From Rhodospirillales bacterium (lineage in GTDB: Bacteria > Pseudomonadota > Gammaproteobacteria > Steroidobacterales > JAHEKG01), in the NCBI GenBank assembly GCA_024638475.1, contig JAHEKG010000002.1, positions 1-60,261 of the forward strand: DNA of 60,261 nucleotides. The letters are read 5' to 3'. The notes beneath the pieces are model-generated. The model had not been told where the DNA came from. It saw only the letters and a program-made list of their open reading frames with translations, and searched no databases. Of the stretch, positions 28,610 through 36,674 are shown piece after piece. The first letter of the stretch is position 1; each line of letters begins with the position of its first letter. The position numbers were made by a program, and so were the translations under genes.

Positions 28610-28781
28610 TATTTGAACCCGGACAAGCGCCCACAAAGCAGTCATCGGAAAACTATTTGGCCGTAACGGGCGGATCACTGCACTGAAGGTTCGCGCCGCT
28701 GTAGACCGGGTCACAGTCTCGGGCGGGCTAAGTGTGAACGGCTTCACCGCGACACAATTTGTAACCCTCTACCGTTGTTCC

Positions 28782-29126
28782 ATGCAGGTGAAAAACGAAA
28801 GCGTAAGCAATCGATCTTGGCGTACGGGATTGGCATTGGCGGCGCTGGTTGTTGCAGTGTTGGGCGGCTGTGGTCACGCGCCGGTTGAATCCGAATCGGT
28901 AGCTTTGGCCGCAGAAGCCCGCCATTCGACTTTGCTCCTCGTTGGCTTGGAGGACGGCTCCATTGTTCGCCAAACTTTGGCACTCGATGCGGACATTTGT
29001 ATGAAGGAGTTGAACAATTCGACAACGAGATGCCTGACACGGGGCGACGCGATTCTGAATAGCGAGGGCCTTATCGTCGGCTACGAAATGGTTTCTGAGA
29101 CCATTGAGCTGCAGGGCAGAAATTAG
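28782..29126 (+). CDS. hypothetical lipoprotein
   Basis: The lipobox LGGC follows the hydrophobic stretch LALAALVVAV. I prefer the ATG at 28782 (MQVKNES...) over the ORF-track start at 28734. No family recognised. Confidence 0.5.
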   Translation: MQVKNESVSNRSWRTGLALAALVVAVLGGCGHAPVESESVALAAEARHSTLLLVGLEDGSIVRQTLALDADICMKELNNSTTRCLTRGDAILNSEGLIVGYEMVSETIELQGRN

Positions 29127-29182: not shown

Positions 29183-30736
29183 CTAGTGCGTAAGGGATTT
29201 GATCTCCGCAAGCAGCGCTTGCATCGCCGCCGGCTTACGGAAACAACTGGTAAAACGGGCTTTGTCCTCAGCCGATAATTTTGATGCCGTGAGTGCCACG
29301 ATTGGCTTCGCGTAACCGCGTTTACGCAGATCCTCGGCCGCTTCCACACCGCTCATTCCTGGCAGGTTGCAGTCCATTAATACGATGTCCGGTTCATAGG
29401 CCAAGACTTTTTCCATCGCCTCGCGGCCGTTCTTCGCCACGATAAGTCCATAACCCGCCCGGTGGAGGTAGTACTCGGCCAATGCCAGCATATCTTCATC
29501 GTCGTCGCACACCAGCACACTGACGGGTTTGGTGGCATAGGTTTCCTCCGGGGGCGGCGAAAGCGCGTCGGGCGGTGGGAGGGTATTACCCTCACCCAAT
29601 GCAATGGGAAGATTAACCGCAACCGTGCAGCCTTGGCCCAAGGTCGAGTCCAGTGAAATTTCGCCGCCCATCAGCTTCGCCAAGCGCAACGAAATCGTCA
29701 GCCCCAGGCCGGCACCGGTCTTGCCCGCGTGGGTGCCGCCGCGCTCGAATGCCCGAAACACCTTTTCTTGATCTTCGATGCTGATACCCGGCCCGCTGTC
29801 CGCCACCGAGGAGACCAGGCGGCCGTCCGCATAGGTCGTCACGAGCTGAATGCCACCCTCATTGGTGAACTTAATCGCGTTGCCCAGGAGGTTGATCAGG
29901 ATTTGCCGCAGGCGTACCTCGTCCGCATGAATGACTTGGGGCACCGCGGGGTCGATCGAGCACACGAACGAAAGCTCTTTGTCCGCGGCCATCGGCGCCA
30001 TCATCGCCGCTAAGTCCCCCAACAGCTCGTGGAGGTCGAAATCCGTCTCCTGGAGCTCGAGCTGGCCGGCGTCCAGCCTGGCATCGTCCAATACCGCCTC
30101 TACCAAGGCATTCAAATGGTGCGCGGATCGGGCAATCGCCTCCACGCTCTTGTGAACTGTGTTGGCCGGCGCGTTCGGTTCACCGGCTAGTTCGACATAG
30201 TTGATGATCGAGGCAAGCGGGGTCCGAAACTCGTGCGACATCATCGCAATAAACTGTCCCTTGGTGCTGCTACTGCGCTCGGCGTCCTTACGGTGATGGT
30301 CGAGCTCGGCTTTGGCTTCGACAAGCTCGCTAATCAGATCTCGCTGCCGGGCGATCAAGCGCTGTTGGCTGGCATGCAAGAGCTTCAACTCGTTAGCCGC
30401 TTGTTGCTTCGCCTGAATCGAGTCGTGGTCCTGCTTCGCGTCCAACAGCACGACGAAATGCCCGTCGTCGGTAGGCAGCGTGTGGACGTGTGCGACGACA
30501 CCGCCGCCAATGGACACGAACTCGAATATTCTGGGCTGACTATCCAGGGACTCGAACAGGTAGGGGGCATATGGCAGGAGATCGGTACCTGGACAGACCG
30601 ATTCCAGTCCGCACCACTGAGTCTCGCCCCAGGCTTCGATCAGATGAAAATCCGCATCGATCTTGACGCACGCTGGCCGCGTATCAACGGAAAAATTTTC
30701 CTGCAGGTAGTCGACGACTTGTTGCGGAAACCTCAT
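29183..30736 (-). CDS. soluble hybrid sensor histidine kinase/response regulator with an uncharacterised N-terminal domain
   Basis: 517 aa with no TM helix. A coiled coil precedes the H-box SHEFRTPL. The N-box is LLGNAIKFT, G1 is DSGPGI and G2 is GAGLGL. The C-terminal receiver reads VLVCDDDEDM...IVLMDCNLPGMSG. Confidence 0.9.
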   Translation of the reverse strand: MRFPQQVVDYLQENFSVDTRPACVKIDADFHLIEAWGETQWCGLESVCPGTDLLPYAPYLFESLDSQPRIFEFVSIGGGVVAHVHTLPTDDGHFVVLLDAKQDHDSIQAKQQAANELKLLHASQQRLIARQRDLISELVEAKAELDHHRKDAERSSSTKGQFIAMMSHEFRTPLASIINYVELAGEPNAPANTVHKSVEAIARSAHHLNALVEAVLDDARLDAGQLELQETDFDLHELLGDLAAMMAPMAADKELSFVCSIDPAVPQVIHADEVRLRQILINLLGNAIKFTNEGGIQLVTTYADGRLVSSVADSGPGISIEDQEKVFRAFERGGTHAGKTGAGLGLTISLRLAKLMGGEISLDSTLGQGCTVAVNLPIALGEGNTLPPPDALSPPPEETYATKPVSVLVCDDDEDMLALAEYYLHRAGYGLIVAKNGREAMEKVLAYEPDIVLMDCNLPGMSGVEAAEDLRKRGYAKPIVALTASKLSAEDKARFTSCFRKPAAMQALLAEIKSLTH

Positions 30737-30738
30737 CT

Positions 30739-31260
30739 TTACCGTTGCAGATCCTTGGCGACAATCGCTTCCGCCAATGCGATCAGGGCTGCTTCGACAT
30801 CGTCACCGGTTTTGGCACTGGTTCGGTACACCTTGCCGAACTCATCCCCCAGCGACTGGATGGTTTCGTCTGCGATCTGCCACAGCGTGGGCAAATCGCT
30901 CTTGTTCAGCAGAAGAACGTCCGGCCGTGCACCATAGCGCTCTTCGATTTGTTGCCGCAGTTTGCGGGCCGACGTTAGAGTCTGCGAGCGAGTACCGTCG
31001 GCGACGTAGACAAAACCCGCCGCCCCGCGAAGGTAGGCGAATTCCCGGGCCCCAAATTGCTCGGCCCCCGCCACGTCCCAAATGATCAGCTTGACCGAAA
31101 CATTCTCGCGGCCGAGTTGTATTTGCTTCGTGTCAATCTTGACCCCGACAGTCGTCAGGTACTTGTCGGAAAAATGGTTGTTGACGAACCGCTCGACGAC
31201 ACTAGTCTTGCCGACTGCGAAGTCTCCAACCACGCATACCTTAGTGGTCAGAGATGACAC
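30739..31260 (-). CDS. Ras/Rab-like small GTPase
   Basis: 173 aa with a GTG start. G1 is GDFAVGKT, G2 is the Thr in YLTTVG, G3 is WDVAGAEQF, G4 is NKSD and G5 is TSAKTG. Confidence 0.85.
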   Translation of the reverse strand: MSSLTTKVCVVGDFAVGKTSVVERFVNNHFSDKYLTTVGVKIDTKQIQLGRENVSVKLIIWDVAGAEQFGAREFAYLRGAAGFVYVADGTRSQTLTSARKLRQQIEERYGARPDVLLLNKSDLPTLWQIADETIQSLGDEFGKVYRTSAKTGDDVEAALIALAEAIVAKDLQR

Positions 31261-32957
31261 TAACGCCCGGCCCGGGCAACGAGAGCTAATTCAACAGTGG
31301 CTTTCCGTTGGCTGGTGTCGTAGGCGGAGGGGCCGGCCGCACCGTCCGCCGGCAGAATCGCGTCCGGCGTTACGCCAAACTCTGCCAGGACCGCGGCAAC
31401 GGCTTCCGCGCGACGAATCGCTAAGCGTTCGTTGGCCGCGGGATCGCCGGAGTTGTCGGTCGAGCCAATGACGGTAACGCGGACCCTACGGTCAGTGGTC
31501 GCGGCACGCGCCTCCAAATCGGCCAGCCGGCGGGAGATTGTTCGCAGGGCCGAATCGGCCGCGGGCGCCAGTGTGGTCCCGCTGACAAACTGAAAACTCG
31601 CCCCGGATAAGGCCTCGACTTCTGCCGTGAGCTGACGCAAATCGCTGTCGATGACGCCGTCGAAGTCGGCAATCTCTATGCCCGCCACATTCAGTACCCG
31701 CGCACGGGTGGCTTCGATCCACTGCTTGGGTGCCTCCCCGGTAACGGTGACAATGGCCCCGGCAATCGTGTAGTTCACGCTGTTCAAGTCACCGATTGCT
31801 TGACCGACGCGCCGAGCGACCAGCTCCGGTTCGAGCGATTGAAACGGCTGCAGCTCGGCGAACACCGATTCGACAGGGATCCCAATCTGCCTGGCCACTG
31901 CCGAGACGTCCATCGCCAGCGGATCGCGTAGCCCGCGCAGGACAATCTTGCCGCCGTCCCGGGCGGCTTCCGCGACGTAGATGCCAGGTGTATCGCGTAG
32001 CGCTGCCGTGAAGTTTTTCAGCTCATTGGCGTCGCTCCATCGCGAAAACCAAAAATAGCCAGCCGCAGCAAGCAGTAATAATCCAATGATGATCAGCGGC
32101 CAGGGGGTACGGCTAGCGTCACCTTCGGCACTTTGGATCGCCTGAAAGGCGAGGCATTTTTCGAGCTCGACCTCCACGCCTGGGACCGACGCCGTGTCAC
32201 CAGCATATTCTCTAACGGCATCGCCGTAGCGAAAATGAATTCGCTCTAGGATGGCGCTGAGCTCGTCGCGCAGCGACTTGGGCGGGACGCCGCGGATGAC
32301 ACACACCAGCAGGGCATGAGGGCCATGCACCGCCCAAAGAGTAAATTCGCCCATATCGGCCGATTCGAGGCGGCCCGTGCGATCCGGGGAAAAACTCTCT
32401 TTTACGAAATCCTGGATTGCGGTGAACATCGCTGACACGGCATCACTGTCCTTGATTTTGGACGCGGCGTGATGAACGTGTTCGATCAAGAGGCCGTTCT
32501 CGCGACTGATGAGGTACGCCTGTTCGATACGGTATAACAGCGTCCTCTGCAGGACGAAATCGCCGAACGGGATGCCCGCCCGGGCGGCCTGCAGCCGCCA
32601 CTTCAGCCCTTTGGGCGTCAGGCTATGCTCGACAGCCGCATTGATTTGCTGCGAAAACTCCCTGAGGGTATGTGTGATGGACTTGCGAATCGCGGGGCCC
32701 ATCACCGGATACAACGCATCGCTGTAGGTCTGCGGGTCGTTGTGGAAAGCTTGTTGCAAGCACTCACCCACCGGCGGCGTCAACGAGTCGACGAGTTCCG
32801 AGCCCCGCTGGTGACTTCTGTGGATCGCCTCCGGTAAGACATCGGCCACGTCGCTGGTGCGCGTTTCCGGCCGTTCCACTCGCTCGGCGATTGAATCCAG
32901 CGCTTGCTTTTCCGCGCCGAACAGCAAATCCTTCAGTTTATCGAGATCGTTCATCAA
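31260..32957 (-). CDS. bitopic membrane protein: cytoplasmic N-domain, one TM helix, BON-like repeats, C-terminal OmpA-like peptidoglycan-binding domain
   Basis: 565 aa. The TM helix is PWPLIIIGLLLLAAAGYFWF, at about residues 290-310. The C-terminus VTVIGSTDNSGDPAANERLAIRRAEAVAAVL is an OmpA_C-type motif. The stop overlaps the GTPase GTG start (TAGTG). Confidence 0.75.
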   Translation of the reverse strand: MMNDLDKLKDLLFGAEKQALDSIAERVERPETRTSDVADVLPEAIHRSHQRGSELVDSLTPPVGECLQQAFHNDPQTYSDALYPVMGPAIRKSITHTLREFSQQINAAVEHSLTPKGLKWRLQAARAGIPFGDFVLQRTLLYRIEQAYLISRENGLLIEHVHHAASKIKDSDAVSAMFTAIQDFVKESFSPDRTGRLESADMGEFTLWAVHGPHALLVCVIRGVPPKSLRDELSAILERIHFRYGDAVREYAGDTASVPGVEVELEKCLAFQAIQSAEGDASRTPWPLIIIGLLLLAAAGYFWFSRWSDANELKNFTAALRDTPGIYVAEAARDGGKIVLRGLRDPLAMDVSAVARQIGIPVESVFAELQPFQSLEPELVARRVGQAIGDLNSVNYTIAGAIVTVTGEAPKQWIEATRARVLNVAGIEIADFDGVIDSDLRQLTAEVEALSGASFQFVSGTTLAPAADSALRTISRRLADLEARAATTDRRVRVTVIGSTDNSGDPAANERLAIRRAEAVAAVLAEFGVTPDAILPADGAAGPSAYDTSQRKATVELALVARAGR

Positions 32958-32974
32958 GTAGCGTTTCGCTTGCG

Positions 32975-33535
32975 CTACCCCTTAGGCAACTTGAAATCCT
33001 TCTTGAGCCTCAGGGCGACCTCGGAAAGCAGCGCAGCCAAATCCTCGCGACCCAACTTCGCCTCGGCCAACTGTGTTTGGCCTTGGAGGCTCGCGTCAAA
33101 CTGATCGGAGGTTTCTTGGATGGTGGCCAACAGCTCTTCGCCTTGGTCTTTCACGGAAGCTCGAAGTTGCCGATTCTCCGATTCGATCTGCTCTTCGACT
33201 TCCTCGAACCAGCCTTCCACTTGACGAGCCAGGCTATCGATATCCTTCGACGTCTGTTTGTTCTCGTCCGTTCGCGCCTTACGTTCCATTTTGAACTGGT
33301 CCGTTAGCTTGTCCAATTCGCGTTTCGTGTAGGCGTCCAACCGTTCCAGCCGCTTGTCGACATGCTTCGATAGCTGCTCAATGGACTTGGTCAGGCTTTG
33401 CTCCATCTCTGCAAAGCGCTTCTCGTAGTCACGCATCTGGCCGCCGAACAATATCTGCCGGATTTGATCGACATTGCCCTCCAAGTCCTCGGTAGCGCTG
33501 GATTGATCTTGTTTCTTATTGTCTCTGCGTGCCAT
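32975..33535 (-). CDS. hypothetical coiled-coil protein
   Basis: 186 aa, highly charged with heptad-like repeats throughout and no TM helix. Its N-terminal motif IRQILFGGQMRDYEKRF resembles the N-terminus of the downstream OmpA-domain protein. Confidence 0.6.
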   Translation of the reverse strand: MARRDNKKQDQSSATEDLEGNVDQIRQILFGGQMRDYEKRFAEMEQSLTKSIEQLSKHVDKRLERLDAYTKRELDKLTDQFKMERKARTDENKQTSKDIDSLARQVEGWFEEVEEQIESENRQLRASVKDQGEELLATIQETSDQFDASLQGQTQLAEAKLGREDLAALLSEVALRLKKDFKLPKG

Positions 33536-33544
33536 GCCCTGCCC

Positions 33545-34273
33545 CTAGCTCTTTTCTTCGATCGGCGTTTCTCGCTCCACTCGGTACCCGTGCTGATAAA
33601 CGGAAATTAGCTTCCAGCCCGTGCCCTCGTTTAAGCGTAACTTTTTTCGCAGGCGGCTGACGTGTGTGTCAACCGTCCGGGTTGAAACGTTATTGTAGTC
33701 GATCCCCCATATCGCCTCTAGGATATGGTTGCGGGATAATAGTTTACCGGCATTCCGAAATAACAGTACTGCCAACCCGAACTCCCTATTCGTGAGAGTT
33801 ATCTCCTCTCCATTCAAGATCACGACTTGGTTGTTGATATCGAGAAGATAAGGCTCGGCCTCAAAGGTATTGTCCGGTGATATTCCAATGCCCGTGCGGC
33901 GAAGAATTGCGGCGACCCTGGCCAGCAACTCCCCGCGCCGCATCGGTTTTACTAAATAATCGTCGGCCCCCGCTTCCAAGGCTCTAACGATACTTTGCTC
34001 CTTGTCCTTGACCGTGGCGACTACTACCGGCGTATTATCGTTCAATTCACCGCGCAGCTTGCGGAGCACCTCGATGCCACTGAGCTCGGGCACTATCCAA
34101 TCGAGAATGTAAATGTCAAAGCTGTCGCGCCGAACCGCCCGCAGGAATCCGGCTGATTCCAGAAAACTGTTGACCGTATAGCCTGCGTCCTTCAGCCACA
34201 GGCTGACGATTTCAGCCTGGTCCGGATCATCTTCGAGAATTGCGATGCGTAGGTGATTTTCGGCGGCATGCAA
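33545..34273 (-). CDS. OmpR/PhoB-family response regulator
   Basis: The receiver reads IAILEDDPDQ...IYILDWIVPELSG. The winged helix reads LTNREFGLAVLL...VDTHVSRLRKKL...GYRV. I place the start at the TTG at 34273, with GAGGG 7 nt upstream. The longer ORF-track version (to 34492) overlaps the Hpt gene. Confidence 0.85.
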   Translation of the reverse strand: MHAAENHLRIAILEDDPDQAEIVSLWLKDAGYTVNSFLESAGFLRAVRRDSFDIYILDWIVPELSGIEVLRKLRGELNDNTPVVVATVKDKEQSIVRALEAGADDYLVKPMRRGELLARVAAILRRTGIGISPDNTFEAEPYLLDINNQVVILNGEEITLTNREFGLAVLLFRNAGKLLSRNHILEAIWGIDYNNVSTRTVDTHVSRLRKKLRLNEGTGWKLISVYQHGYRVERETPIEEKS

Positions 34274-34394
34274 TCTGCGGCCCTCGGATACGAATGGGTG
34301 GTTGCCAGGTATTGTACCGTAAGGCTTCAGAAAATCGGCTATTTCACCGGCGTACGGGCCTGCGGGACGTTCTTGCAGCGTGTGGCGGCACCTA

Positions 34395-34697
34395 TTACGC
34401 GAGTTTGACGTGCTGAAGGTAGCGCTCGAGTTCGGCGAGTAAGGCCGCAACTTCAGCCGCGTGGCGCGATCCGGCGGCGCTCTCCAGCTCACCGCCTAGT
34501 CGCGAGATTTCGTCGAGTCCATAGGCGGCACCGGAGCCAAAGAGTTTATGCGCGGTCAATACGATGGACTCGAAGTCAGCGTCTGCCAACGAAGAGTTGA
34601 GCTGCGCCAGCTCCTCCTCGCGGCGCTTTAGGTATTGCGCCATCAGATATCTGGCGAACGGATCAGCGACCGTTATCGGCGTGCCTTGATCATCCAT
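34395..34697 (-). CDS. histidine phosphotransfer (Hpt) domain protein
   Basis: 100 aa, predicted helical. The AHKLFGSGAAYGL motif fits the Hpt HxxKG-type phospho-His context. Confidence 0.75.
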   Translation of the reverse strand: MDDQGTPITVADPFARYLMAQYLKRREEELAQLNSSLADADFESIVLTAHKLFGSGAAYGLDEISRLGGELESAAGSRHAAEVAALLAELERYLQHVKLA

Positions 34698-34762: not shown

Positions 34763-35170
34763 TTAGTGAGAAACTTTCGCCGGTAGCTCCTTCGCCTGAG
34801 ACACCCAACCTTGAACGACGATGGCGCTTGGCGGGCGCCGGACTAGGTTCTTGGCAGCATTTACATCGGCCATCTTGTTTGCCAGATTCTCTGCGTTTCT
34901 GAGTTTCAATTCTTTGACCGTATCCACACCGGCGTGTTCCAGCAGCTCCGCGTATTGACTTGCAACGCCGTTGATTCGGAATAGGTCCGCCATGTTGACG
35001 CATTTCAAGATGCGAGTCTCGGTAATGCCTGTCACCGTTGCCAGCTCGCGGCGCCCTGCGTTGTCGGCACCCTTGTCCAGCAGGTCCTCAACGGTTCGCA
35101 CTCCCGCGGCCCGCAGCGCTGCCGCGGCCTTTGGCCCAATGCCTTCAATTCTCTCGATGCTGTTCGACAT
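34763..35170 (-). CDS. DUF4332-like helix-hairpin-helix protein
   Basis: 135 aa. IERIEGIGPKAAAALRAAGVRTVEDLL and a second GV.TV.EL repeat resemble DUF4332. Confidence 0.6.
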   Translation of the reverse strand: MSNSIERIEGIGPKAAAALRAAGVRTVEDLLDKGADNAGRRELATVTGITETRILKCVNMADLFRINGVASQYAELLEHAGVDTVKELKLRNAENLANKMADVNAAKNLVRRPPSAIVVQGWVSQAKELPAKVSH

Positions 35171-35444: not shown

Positions 35445-35487
35445 AAACGCGGTGGTCGCGCCGTAGGTAGCGCGACCACCGGTTTTT
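35445..35487 (-). terminator. GC-rich hairpin terminator after the repeat lipoprotein gene (bidirectional appearance)
   Basis: A 12-bp stem, CGGTGGTCGCGC (35450-35461) / GCGCGACCACCG (35470-35481), with an 8-nt loop. It is flanked by AAAC on one side and GTTTTT on the other. Confidence 0.6.
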
Positions 35488-35510: not shown

Positions 35511-36674
35511 TTACAGCGTGATGTTGAGGCTCTTCACGACTTCGATCGGTACATAGTTGCTACCAGCGGGAAGATTGTTCTGCAGGGCGTACCTGCGCGC
35601 CGCGTCCAGGGTTTGTCCGCCAATGATCCCGTCCACTTGGGCTTTGTAGAAGCCTTCGTCGGCCAGCGCCGTTTGCAGAGCGCGGACGTTGTCGCGGGTC
35701 ATGTTGACCTCACAAACGACTTGACGCCATTCCATTTTCTCGTCGGTGGCTTTGTTCGTCCGAGTAACCGTTTCGTACTGAGCCGGTATGGCAATCCGCT
35801 GTTCCTTCGCCGGGGACACGAGCTTCGTGACCTTGACATTACCGTATTGAGCGGGAATCGGAACTTCTCGAGTCGTCGCCGGCTTCACGACAACGGTCTT
35901 GGTCACCGTCTTGTACTCGGCCGGAACCGTGATCTCATCGACACGCGCGGGGGAAACTAAGACACGCTTCGATACGGTCTTATAGGTCGCGGGAACTTCG
36001 ACTAGGCACATGATCTCACCGGTGTCGGTGGTCGACTGCGAGATGACGTTTGAAGTCTGTGCAGCGGCTGGACCTTTTTTCCATGCCGTGTGTGCCGCTT
36101 TATCCAGTACCCGCTCGGTGACGGTCTCGTAGACAGCCGGGACCTCAACGATTTTCTTCGAGGCAGGCTTGACGAGGACTGTCTCTTGAACTTCGTCGTA
36201 GACGGCCGGAATAATCTCGAGGCGCGTTGACGCTTCTTTGACGAGCAGATTTTCTTCGGCCTGTTCGAAACGGGCTGGAATGATTTCAAAACGTTCGCCG
36301 GCTTCGCGAACCAATACTTGCTCGCTGACCGTGTCGTAGCGCGCGGGAATCAGCACACGTGCATAGCACTCGCCCGGCTTCGGATTGGGCGGGAATAGGC
36401 TTGCATCCGCTGACATGTTACGCGTGGTCGATTGGGAACTTGCTGCGTCCTCGCGGGCCATCTCCAACCGGCGCTCTGTGGTGGCAAGCTGAGATTCCAA
36501 AGCCGCGATTCGCTGTTGAGAGGCTTTCAAATCCGCTGCAGAAACCGAGCTGGTCGCGGTTGCCGAGCTGCTGCGCTCGTAACTGCTGTTGGTCTCGGCC
36601 GCCATCGTTGAGCAGCCGGCGGCAACGGCCGCGCTGGCAACAACTGTTAATGTCTTCATAAAGTGACGGTTCAT
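35511..36674 (-). CDS. lipoprotein with eight tandem PAxYxTV modules and a C-terminal peptidoglycan-binding (PG_binding_1-like) domain
   Basis: The signal peptide ends in the lipobox AAGCS. There are eight roughly 22-aa repeats (IPARYDTV, IPARFEQA, IPAVYDEV, VPAVYETV, VPATYKTV, VPAEYKTV, IPAQYGNV, IPAQYETV). The C-terminus reads LQTALADEGFYKAQVDGIIGGQTLDAARRY. Confidence 0.75.
   Translation of the reverse strand: MNRHFMKTLTVVASAAVAAGCSTMAAETNSSYERSSSATATSSVSAADLKASQQRIAALESQLATTERRLEMAREDAASSQSTTRNMSADASLFPPNPKPGECYARVLIPARYDTVSEQVLVREAGERFEIIPARFEQAEENLLVKEASTRLEIIPAVYDEVQETVLVKPASKKIVEVPAVYETVTERVLDKAAHTAWKKGPAAAQTSNVISQSTTDTGEIMCLVEVPATYKTVSKRVLVSPARVDEITVPAEYKTVTKTVVVKPATTREVPIPAQYGNVKVTKLVSPAKEQRIAIPAQYETVTRTNKATDEKMEWRQVVCEVNMTRDNVRALQTALADEGFYKAQVDGIIGGQTLDAARRYALQNNLPAGSNYVPIEVVKSLNITL

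Follow-up and report, generated by a model that had tools for sequence, protein, structure and literature searches.

The DNA analysed here is a 60,261-nt window (the whole stretch that was studied) of Rhodospirillales bacterium, GCA_024638475.1, contig JAHEKG010000002.1, and its minus strand carries, from position 34697 down to position 29183, an operon of six genes that includes one for a small Rab-like GTPase. In 5′ to 3′ order the operon encodes a phosphotransfer (Hpt) protein, an OmpR-type response regulator, a coiled-coil protein, a bitopic protein with an OmpA domain, the Ras/Rab-like GTPase and a soluble hybrid histidine kinase, and all six open reading frames (ORFs) were verified on that strand. 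The genes and the features within their products are as follows (the names Rup, DUFX and DUFY are taken up below):

34395–34697, minus strand: Hpt phosphotransfer protein, 100 aa (Pfam Hpt PF01627, 2.3e-9; predicted phospho-histidine H50 in HKLFGS)
33545–34273, minus strand: OmpR/PhoB-type response regulator, 242 aa from TTG 34273 (Response_reg 2e-24, Trans_reg_C 3e-21; receiver aspartate D58)
32975–33535, minus strand: coiled-coil cytoplasmic protein, 186 aa, the “DUFY” of Group 1 Rup (weak coiled-coil-type matches)
31260–32957, minus strand: bitopic inner-membrane protein, 565 aa, the “DUFX:OmpA” protein (helical region and Roadblock/longin-like domain, transmembrane helix, periplasmic region, OmpA-like domain)
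32208–32567, minus strand: predicted Roadblock/longin-like domain, aa 131–250 of the 565-aa protein (AlphaFold2 and Foldseek)
32037–32105, minus strand: single transmembrane helix PWPLIIIGLLLLAAAGYFWFSRW, aa ~285–307 (Kyte-Doolittle 19-residue maximum 2.01)
31593–32012, minus strand: conserved periplasmic region, aa 316–455 (conservation among homologues)
31308–31580, minus strand: OmpA-like peptidoglycan-binding domain, aa 460–550 (Pfam OmpA 1.3e-10)
30739–31260, minus strand: Rab-like small GTPase, 173 aa, Group 1 Rup type (Pfam Ras 3e-30, Roc 1.5e-24)
29183–30736, minus strand: soluble hybrid histidine kinase, 517 aa (PAS-like N-domain, signalling helix, HisKA with H168, HATPase_c, receiver with D455)
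30437–30736, minus strand: predicted PAS-like N-terminal domain, aa 1–100, the “N-term” of Group 1 Rup outputs (AlphaFold2 and Foldseek)
30392–30406, minus strand: QQxxN(E) motif, Q111/Q112/N115, at the start of the helix that leads from the PAS-like to the dimerisation domain (conservation)

The junctions between these genes are very short. The OmpA-domain protein and GTPase genes meet in the sequence TAGTG, a 1-nt overlap that places the GTPase start within the upstream stop, the GTPase and kinase genes are 2 nt apart, the regulator gene is 9 nt from the coiled-coil gene, and 17 nt separate the latter from the OmpA-protein gene. The Hpt-regulator gap is 121 nt when the regulator start is taken as TTG 34273, which has GAGGG upstream; the longest regulator ORF begins at GTG 34492 and runs into the Hpt gene, and it is probably over-extended (the regulator orthologues called independently in a relative have 233–244 aa). 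The preliminary description of this DNA had proposed this minus-strand operon with its overlaps and gaps, and the sequence confirms both the ORFs and the junctions, while Pfam agrees with the main domains that it assigned to the six proteins except for one, the “BON-like repeats” discussed below. A hydrophobic segment (19-residue Kyte-Doolittle average above 1.6) occurs in the 565-aa protein and in no other of the six; the kinase has none (its maximum is 1.20), as the preliminary description had said of it.

The GTPase carries the motifs G1 GDFAVGKT, G2 T37, G3 DVAGA (with D62), G4 NKSD and G5 SAK, and the solved structures closest to it in sequence are all eukaryotic Rabs (Rab27B at 2e-23, Sec4, Rab1 and Rab8). 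Its relatives number in the thousands, the closest of them 60–81% identical and mostly metagenomic; close relatives from Woeseiaceae and other Gammaproteobacteria go by names such as “Rab family GTPase” at NCBI. Phenylalanine stands at the position of Ras Gly12 in G1 and alanine at that of Ras Gln61, the alignment with Rab27B showing the Q-to-A change after DxxG, and in 23 of 23 aligned sequences (the window protein and 22 homologues) G3 reads WDVAGA(E/D) and the glutamine after DxxG is absent. Given the Gln61-to-Ala and Gly12-to-Phe substitutions, poor intrinsic GTP hydrolysis and dependence upon a partner are to be expected.

These features lead directly to a catalogued family. Wuichet & Søgaard-Andersen (Genome Biol Evol 2014; PMC4316618) defined the Rup family and its Group 1 in a purely computational description, in which the Group 1 GTPases lack the catalytic G3 glutamine and its supply in trans was speculated upon. 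Three further conserved genes accompany them: one encodes a cytoplasmic coiled-coil protein, a second a protein whose conserved domain of unknown function is often succeeded by a transmembrane helix and an OmpA domain, and the third a signalling output, either GGDEF/EAL or a histidine kinase, with an invariant glutamine in its N-terminal region (PMC4316618). Their Table S2 lists 27 Group 1 Rup GTPases in the notation DUFY>DUFX:OmpA>Rup>, with carriers that include Alteromonas, Glaciecola, Marinomonas, Pseudoalteromonas, Nostoc, Sorangium, Chloroflexus and flavobacteria (PMC4316618). The authors had proposed a membrane-linked signalling complex on the lines of the conservon; they assigned neither DUFX nor the N-term region, and stated that no cooperation of Rup GTPases with MglB homologues is predicted (PMC4316618). 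The locus in the window has a single-domain GTPase within the 240-aa limit of the group (here 173 aa) with Ras-type G1–G5 motifs including the G3 aspartate, unlike MglA, and without the catalytic glutamine after DxxG; next to it lie a DUFY-type coiled-coil gene, a DUFX gene whose product has one transmembrane helix and an OmpA domain, and a kinase output with the invariant N-terminal glutamine (Q112). By these motifs and this gene order it is very probably a member of the Group 1 Rup systems. The preliminary description had implied that the composition of the operon was new, a claim that falls for the four-gene core, which is the published Group 1 neighbourhood (PMC4316618). [quoted passage not shown]

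How constant is this arrangement in other genomes? A scan of one genome per species gave at least 498 loci that encode a relative of the GTPase, and at the best 80 of these all ORFs were translated and searched with eleven domains of the window's six proteins. Conserved linkage of the GTPase gene, which had been set beforehand as the test of the preliminary description, was found on both sides: the kinase N-domain is encoded directly downstream of the GTPase in 73 of the 76 loci with enough sequence, and the N-domain of the OmpA-type membrane protein (DUFX) directly upstream in 55 of 69. Among the 47 fully flanked loci, 32 have the coiled-coil protein, membrane protein, GTPase and N-domain protein together, and 24, from many different metagenome-assembled genomes (MAGs), have all six genes in the order of the window. 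Independent JGI metagenome gene calls around a GTPase 67% identical to ours give the same string, DUF4332–Hpt–regulator–184 aa–564 aa OmpA–Ras–kinase. The six-gene form belongs to Woeseiaceae and related gammaproteobacterial MAGs, and the core is kept in distant carriers (Beggiatoa/Thiomargarita, Methylococcales, Desulfomonile, Acidobacteriota, Armatimonadota and a Heliobacteriaceae MAG). The smallest version is that of the Desulfomonile MAGs, in which a Rup-type GTPase gene overlaps by 4 nt a gene for a 142-aa stand-alone N-domain that keeps the QQxxNE motif (L046, 10004–10926); this pair sits among serC, serA and purA, with kinase and DUFX absent nearby. Because this minimal cassette carries only the GTPase and the N-domain, that pair is the most constant unit of the system. 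The operon is thus real and conserved, and its gene order is not a chance juxtaposition.

The membrane protein was examined domain by domain. A model of the cytoplasmic part of DUFX, built with AlphaFold2 from an alignment of 42 homologues, has a mean predicted local distance difference test score (pLDDT) of 72.8, with values of 81–94 over aa 200–270, and consists by DSSP of helices in aa 1–139 followed by an alpha-beta-beta-alpha-beta-beta-beta-alpha succession in aa 131–250. When it was compared with the PDB by Foldseek, all 50 of the 50 best matches belonged to the longin/Roadblock superfamily (E 4e-4 to 6e-3). Among them are Mon1-Ccz1 in complex with Ypt7 (5ldd_B, 4e-4), TRAPP (2j3t_C), Ragulator (5yk3_B), MglB bound to MglA (3t12_C, 1e-3), MglC (7ct3), the longin domain of Sec22b, SRX and adaptor sigma subunits. 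Roadblock/longin is the fold of known GTPase-activating proteins (GAPs) and guanine nucleotide exchange factors (GEFs) of small GTPases. A domain-only profile found as its best match among PDB sequences a Roadblock/LC7 protein (9jue_D, E = 0.22, not significant alone), and Pfam gave no match to this region of DUFX or to the members of its alignment. Since sequence methods fail to confirm it, we keep this new assignment, that aa 131–250 of DUFX adopt a Roadblock/longin fold, at the level of fold and hold it with moderate confidence.

Outside the membrane, aa 316–455 are conserved in the homologues, and here the preliminary description had seen BON-like repeats. Pfam BON is silent on the 565-aa protein at E ≤ 10 and on 18 homologous regions at E ≤ 5, so that identity was rejected as unsupported; no other Pfam family matches the region, and its profile found nothing among PDB sequences. 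The OmpA domain that follows has NCBIfam matches, all below cut-off, to anchors of the Pal, YiaD and YfiB type. DUFX homologues elsewhere end in OmpA, RodZ_C (DUF4115) or SH3_3 domains, which are cell-wall- or envelope-associated by Pfam annotation; the RodZ_C/DUF4115 ends (P0227–P0230, P0237, P0238 and P0240) and the SH3_3 end (P0233) are from KSB1 and unclassified bacteria. Duplicated forms of the system occur in giant sulfur bacteria (Thiomargarita, Thioploca and Parabeggiatoa; L044, L064, L065, L071 and L051), where some ORFs encode membrane proteins with two DUFX units (1248 aa in L051; 1077 aa and 840 aa in L071) and where a second stand-alone N-domain gene is found upstream of the GTPase and extra receiver-kinase genes downstream.

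The 186-aa protein, DUFY, has nothing above the Pfam cut-offs and weak coiled-coil-type matches only. It is 39% charged residues and has no transmembrane segment, and its homologue lies directly upstream of the membrane-protein gene, two genes upstream of the GTPase, in 34 of 47 loci.

Pfam recognises HisKA, HATPase_c and Response_reg in the kinase and leaves aa 1 to about 135 without a match; the core is most similar in NCBIfam to TorS, BarA, ArcB and RcsC. The N-domain itself has no match in Pfam, the PAS families included, or among PDB sequences. Its AlphaFold2 model, built from an alignment of representative HMMER matches, is of high quality (pLDDT 94.0, predicted TM-score 0.80) and starts with a helix, which is followed by five strands and, from aa 101 to at least 134, by another helix. 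The five strands form an antiparallel sheet flanked by helices, with a signalling helix at the C-terminal end. The best Foldseek matches of this model are all PAS or PAS-like sensor domains (E from 2.5e-3, TM-score about 0.45–0.5): phyB, FlrB (7yrt), VC2136 (9p6i), YF1 (4gcz) and YtvA, several of them PAS-kinase proteins (FlrB, VC2136 and YF1). On this model we assign the N-domain a PAS-like fold, which is likewise new.

An exhaustive HMMER search found 148 representative clusters of proteins with the N-domain, which is N-terminal in nearly all of those for which the matched stretch is listed. (A word-indexed protein search with the 135-aa N-domain returned nothing and missed even the window's own protein; absence from such a search does not mean rarity for short, divergent domains.) Most of the matched proteins are about 500–530 aa long and were judged from that length to be hybrid kinases. 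Other carriers are kinase-receiver-Hpt fusions (P0273, P0278 and P0371), PAS- or GAF-kinases and a class III adenylate/guanylate cyclase (among P0320, P0361 and P0370), as well as stand-alone N-domain proteins of 105–177 aa; two more (P0299 and P0326) have no Pfam domain downstream of the N-domain. The N-domain appears from this distribution to behave as a portable input module. Its most striking feature is the QQxxNE motif, which stand-alone copies retain: Q112 is invariant in 40 sequences, and across 75 copies Q111 is kept in 97%, Q112 in 99% (74 of 75) and N115 in 93%. The hydrophobic periodicity of the same 75 sequences places the coiled-coil core at 110/113–114/117/120/124/127/131/134, and Q111, Q112 and N115 then fall at heptad positions b, c and f, on the outer face of the helix.

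At the downstream end of the pathway, the phospho-acceptors are intact in canonical motifs (H168 and D455 of the kinase, H50 of Hpt and D58 of the regulator), so that by its recognisable domains and motifs the operon is predicted to encode a complete His-Asp-His-Asp phosphorelay, as the preliminary description had also concluded. Hpt is fused C-terminally to some kinases with the same N-domain (the kinase-receiver-Hpt proteins above), which ties the separate Hpt of this operon to this kinase. Upstream Hpt and regulator genes are present in 25 and 28, respectively, of the 47 fully flanked loci; they form a conserved extension within a gammaproteobacterial clade to which Woeseiaceae belong, and they are new relative to the published description of Group 1 Rup systems. 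Three six-gene loci (L030, L035 and L036) have an extra receiver-domain protein (200–441 aa) between Hpt and the OmpR-type regulator, which suggests a branched relay there.

We marginally favour, as an overall reading, a Group 1 Rup system that is wired into a four-step His-Asp-His-Asp phosphorelay ending in an OmpR-type transcription factor, with the wiring as proposed here. That wiring taken by itself, from receptor to GTPase to kinase to relay, is close to an even call and tilts slightly to the negative. Its steps would be as follows. The input would be the state of the cell wall or envelope, perceived through the periplasmic part of DUFX; DUFX, fixed to peptidoglycan, would offer its Roadblock/longin domain as a platform on which the GTPase docks and is regulated (as GEF and/or GAP), and DUFY would serve as an accessory scaffold or co-regulator. 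The GTPase, which would hydrolyse GTP weakly when alone and need a partner, would in its GTP-bound form bind the PAS-like N-domain or linker of the kinase, alter the coiled-coil linker and so set autophosphorylation at H168, from which the phosphate would pass to D455, to H50 of Hpt and to D58 of the regulator and transcription would be altered. In addition, the missing catalytic residue may be supplied in trans by Q112, together with Q111 and N115, from the outer face of the linker helix; since Q112/N115 may thus complete the GTPase active site, signalling could be self-limiting, and if Q112 does so the kinase would be both effector and timer. The most specific form of the proposal, in which DUFX is a cell-wall-anchored receptor with a Roadblock/longin platform acting as GEF or GAP and the kinase's PAS-like domain is an effector specific for the GTP state that, through Gln112, also completes the active site, is clearly more doubtful than the wiring, and we put it forward tentatively. 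The preliminary description had envisaged a flow from envelope protein through GTPase to kinase; this fits the Roadblock/longin and PAS-like folds of the models, and the direction of signal flow and the GTP dependence of the kinase are what we infer.

Several points weigh against this wiring. The DUFX model is of medium confidence (pLDDT 72.8) and its first 130 residues are helices without assignment; the Foldseek E values are modest (4e-4 for DUFX and 2.5e-3 for the kinase N-domain), and neither domain has a significant sequence-level match. The Gln/Asn stripe shares its helix face with an invariant hydrophobic residue, L119, and may reflect packing on the PAS core or signalling through the linker rather than catalysis, and the PAS-like domain could bind a ligand of its own. 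Finally, DUFX was not detected beside the GTPase in 14 of 69 loci, so the membrane protein is not obligatory.

The last two points are also what one would look for if the wiring were reversed or parallel, with the PAS-like domain of the kinase sensing a cytoplasmic ligand and the state of the kinase controlling the GTPase, or with the GTPase merely recruiting the kinase to the membrane protein; the GTPase would then be an output or localiser and not an input switch. PAS domains commonly bind ligands and the fold of the N-domain is PAS-like, the 14 loci just mentioned have GTPase and N-domain without a detectable DUFX neighbour, and in the conservon the interactions depend on both kinase and GTPase activities, with ATP and GTP states governing complex formation. 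We nonetheless consider this arrangement unlikely, though it is the strongest of the alternatives: stand-alone N-domains that have no kinase still adjoin the GTPase and keep QQxxNE, the N-domain is found on several different outputs, as expected of an input module, and it matches no Pfam PAS family.

Somewhat less probable again is a spatial or structural role, in which the GTPase and its anchor form a peptidoglycan-fixed positioning or polarity device (MglA-like) or a scaffold for cell-wall synthesis and the relay is a clade-specific add-on. OmpA-like domains do anchor to peptidoglycan and some DUFX homologues carry the RodZ C-terminal domain in their place; Hpt and regulator accompany only part of the family (25–28 of 47 loci), and the flavobacterial and Chloroflexus members are listed with Rup, DUFX and DUFY only (PMC4316618). 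The tightest partner of the GTPase, however, is the input domain of a signalling enzyme (73 of 76 loci) and not a cytoskeletal or motility gene, and within the window no motility, pilus or divisome genes flank the operon.

We regard an anti-phage defence or other conflict system built on a GTPase and a membrane anchor as very improbable. The coiled-coil protein does match the coiled-coil tails of ZorA weakly (E ~1e-4, far below the cut-offs), but these matches fall in the tail of the model and are probably compositional; a PADLOC scan, after which defence was rejected, gave weak matches only, the coiled-coil-type ones to ZorA and other models; its models match neither GTPase nor membrane protein, and kinase and regulator match only SduA (E ~1e-4). 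Close relatives share the flanking DUF4332, dodecin and lipoprotein genes, and within the window no mobile-element or nuclease genes lie near the operon. Chance juxtaposition of independent genes is scarcely credible, with coding regions that overlap or nearly abut in an order conserved across many species and several phyla.

If only the established part holds, the locus is a well-annotated member of a catalogued, uncharacterised family. It is nonetheless an unusually complete example: a single operon supplies the receptor-like anchor, the switch, the enzyme that serves as effector and the transcriptional read-out, and this makes nucleotide-dependent signalling directly assayable through kinase activity and a reporter gene. 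The Roadblock/longin-like fold predicted for DUFX and the portable PAS-like domain with its invariant glutamine offer hypotheses, approachable by mutation, on how a bacterial Rab-like switch is loaded, read and reset. Were the most specific form of the proposal true, it would be a bacterial receptor > G protein > effector pathway made from the same parts as eukaryotic Rab/Rag regulation, and the partnership of a Ras/Rab GTPase with longin/Roadblock proteins would extend to the Rup1 lineage and would not belong to the MglA lineage alone.

The surroundings of the operon were surveyed as well. A convergent gene (28734–29126, plus strand) faces its 3′ end, and upstream on the same strand as the operon lie genes for a DUF4332 protein, a dodecin and a 387-aa lipoprotein with a PG_binding_1 domain. 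The DUF4332 (helix-hairpin-helix) gene (34763–35170, minus strand) is 65 nt upstream of Hpt and holds the same position in 23 close relatives; it is absent from more distant six-gene loci and was for that reason rejected as a seventh member of the operon, its adjacency being probably clade synteny, though co-transcription is possible. The lipoprotein gene (35511–36674, minus strand; PG_binding_1 at the C-terminus of its product) is about 800 nt upstream of the operon. Of the 80 loci, 16 have a homologue at most 10 kb from the GTPase, and in two distant gammaproteobacterial loci without detectable DUFX (L070 and L067) a lipoprotein homologue is found downstream of the kinase on the same strand (12659–13723 in L070, where the gene string reads regulator-GTPase-kinase-Hpt-lipoprotein, and from about 11216 in L067); the lipoprotein may be a periplasmic partner or a member of the regulon. 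Between the lipoprotein and dodecin genes is a perfect 12-bp GC-rich hairpin (10 GC pairs; 35450–35481), with its T-run on the plus strand, yet both flanking genes are on the minus strand. Scans for promoters and terminators gave counts at or below shuffled expectation and are thus uninformative on transcript structure; Rfam had no matches over the whole window, and a repeat search across the operon returned short chance-level matches only.

Among known systems, the operon shares with the published Group 1 Rup systems the order DUFY > DUFX:TM:OmpA > GTPase without the G3 glutamine > signalling protein (TM, transmembrane helix), hosts that include Gammaproteobacteria, and a histidine kinase as output, one of the two typical outputs named in PMC4316618. 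It differs in that the kinase is a hybrid whose pathway is extended by a separate Hpt and an OmpR-type regulator within the operon, and in that DUFX and N-term, both unassigned in PMC4316618, model here as Roadblock/longin-like and PAS-like, respectively.

The actinobacterial conservon (CvnA-D; Mfp) is similar in encoding a small Ras-superfamily GTPase with a Roadblock-fold partner and a histidine kinase, and in the membrane-associated, G-protein-like signalling complex proposed for it. It was overlooked in the preliminary description, whose statement that MglA/MglB modules are not kinase-coupled does not hold, the conservon combining the histidine kinase CvnA with MglB-like CvnB and MglA-like CvnD. 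In the conservon the GTPase is of the MglA family and lacks the G3 aspartate, the MglB-type Roadblock protein is free-standing, a DUF742 protein and a membrane kinase are present, and the operon has no cognate regulator, whereas the operon described here has a Rab-like GTPase with D62, a Roadblock-like fold (as modelled) within a peptidoglycan-anchored membrane protein, a soluble kinase, and Hpt and regulator. Pfam Robl_LC7 and DUF742 match none of the six proteins, and with the G3 aspartate D62 present and the kinase soluble, membership in the conservon or MglAB systems was rejected. Myxococcus MglA/MglB/RomRX likewise places a small GTPase under a Roadblock-fold regulator and links it to receiver-domain proteins, but MglA has an Arg and a Gln of its own, MglB forms a soluble dimer as a separate protein (an mglB-type gene is absent here), and the pathway leads to pole identity and motility rather than to a relay driven by a kinase.

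With eukaryotic Rab and Rag GTPases and their longin/Roadblock regulators (Mon1-Ccz1, TRAPP, Ragulator, GATOR1 and FLCN-FNIP) the system shares a GTPase that is closest in sequence to Rabs, a DUFX domain that in its model is closest to theirs in fold, and a membrane-tethered platform. On the bacterial side the GTPase lacks a lipid-anchor motif, the platform belongs to a bitopic protein that binds the cell wall, and the effector is a two-component kinase; the GEF or GAP role of DUFX is in this comparison a model-based proposal only. Rap and RapGAP offer a parallel for catalysis in trans, since there too the catalytic glutamine is missing and a partner carboxamide is expected, for which Q112 and N115 of the kinase linker are the candidates; the parallel is one of residue logic alone, sequence and fold similarity to RapGAP being absent. 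Finally, the TorS/TorR, ArcB/ArcA, RcsC/RcsD/RcsB and BarA/UvrY phosphorelays have the same H1-D1-H2-D2 architecture, but their kinases are membrane sensors with periplasmic or transmembrane input of their own and their Hpt is usually fused, whereas the kinase described here is soluble and has as its sole input domain the GTPase-linked domain that we model as PAS-like.

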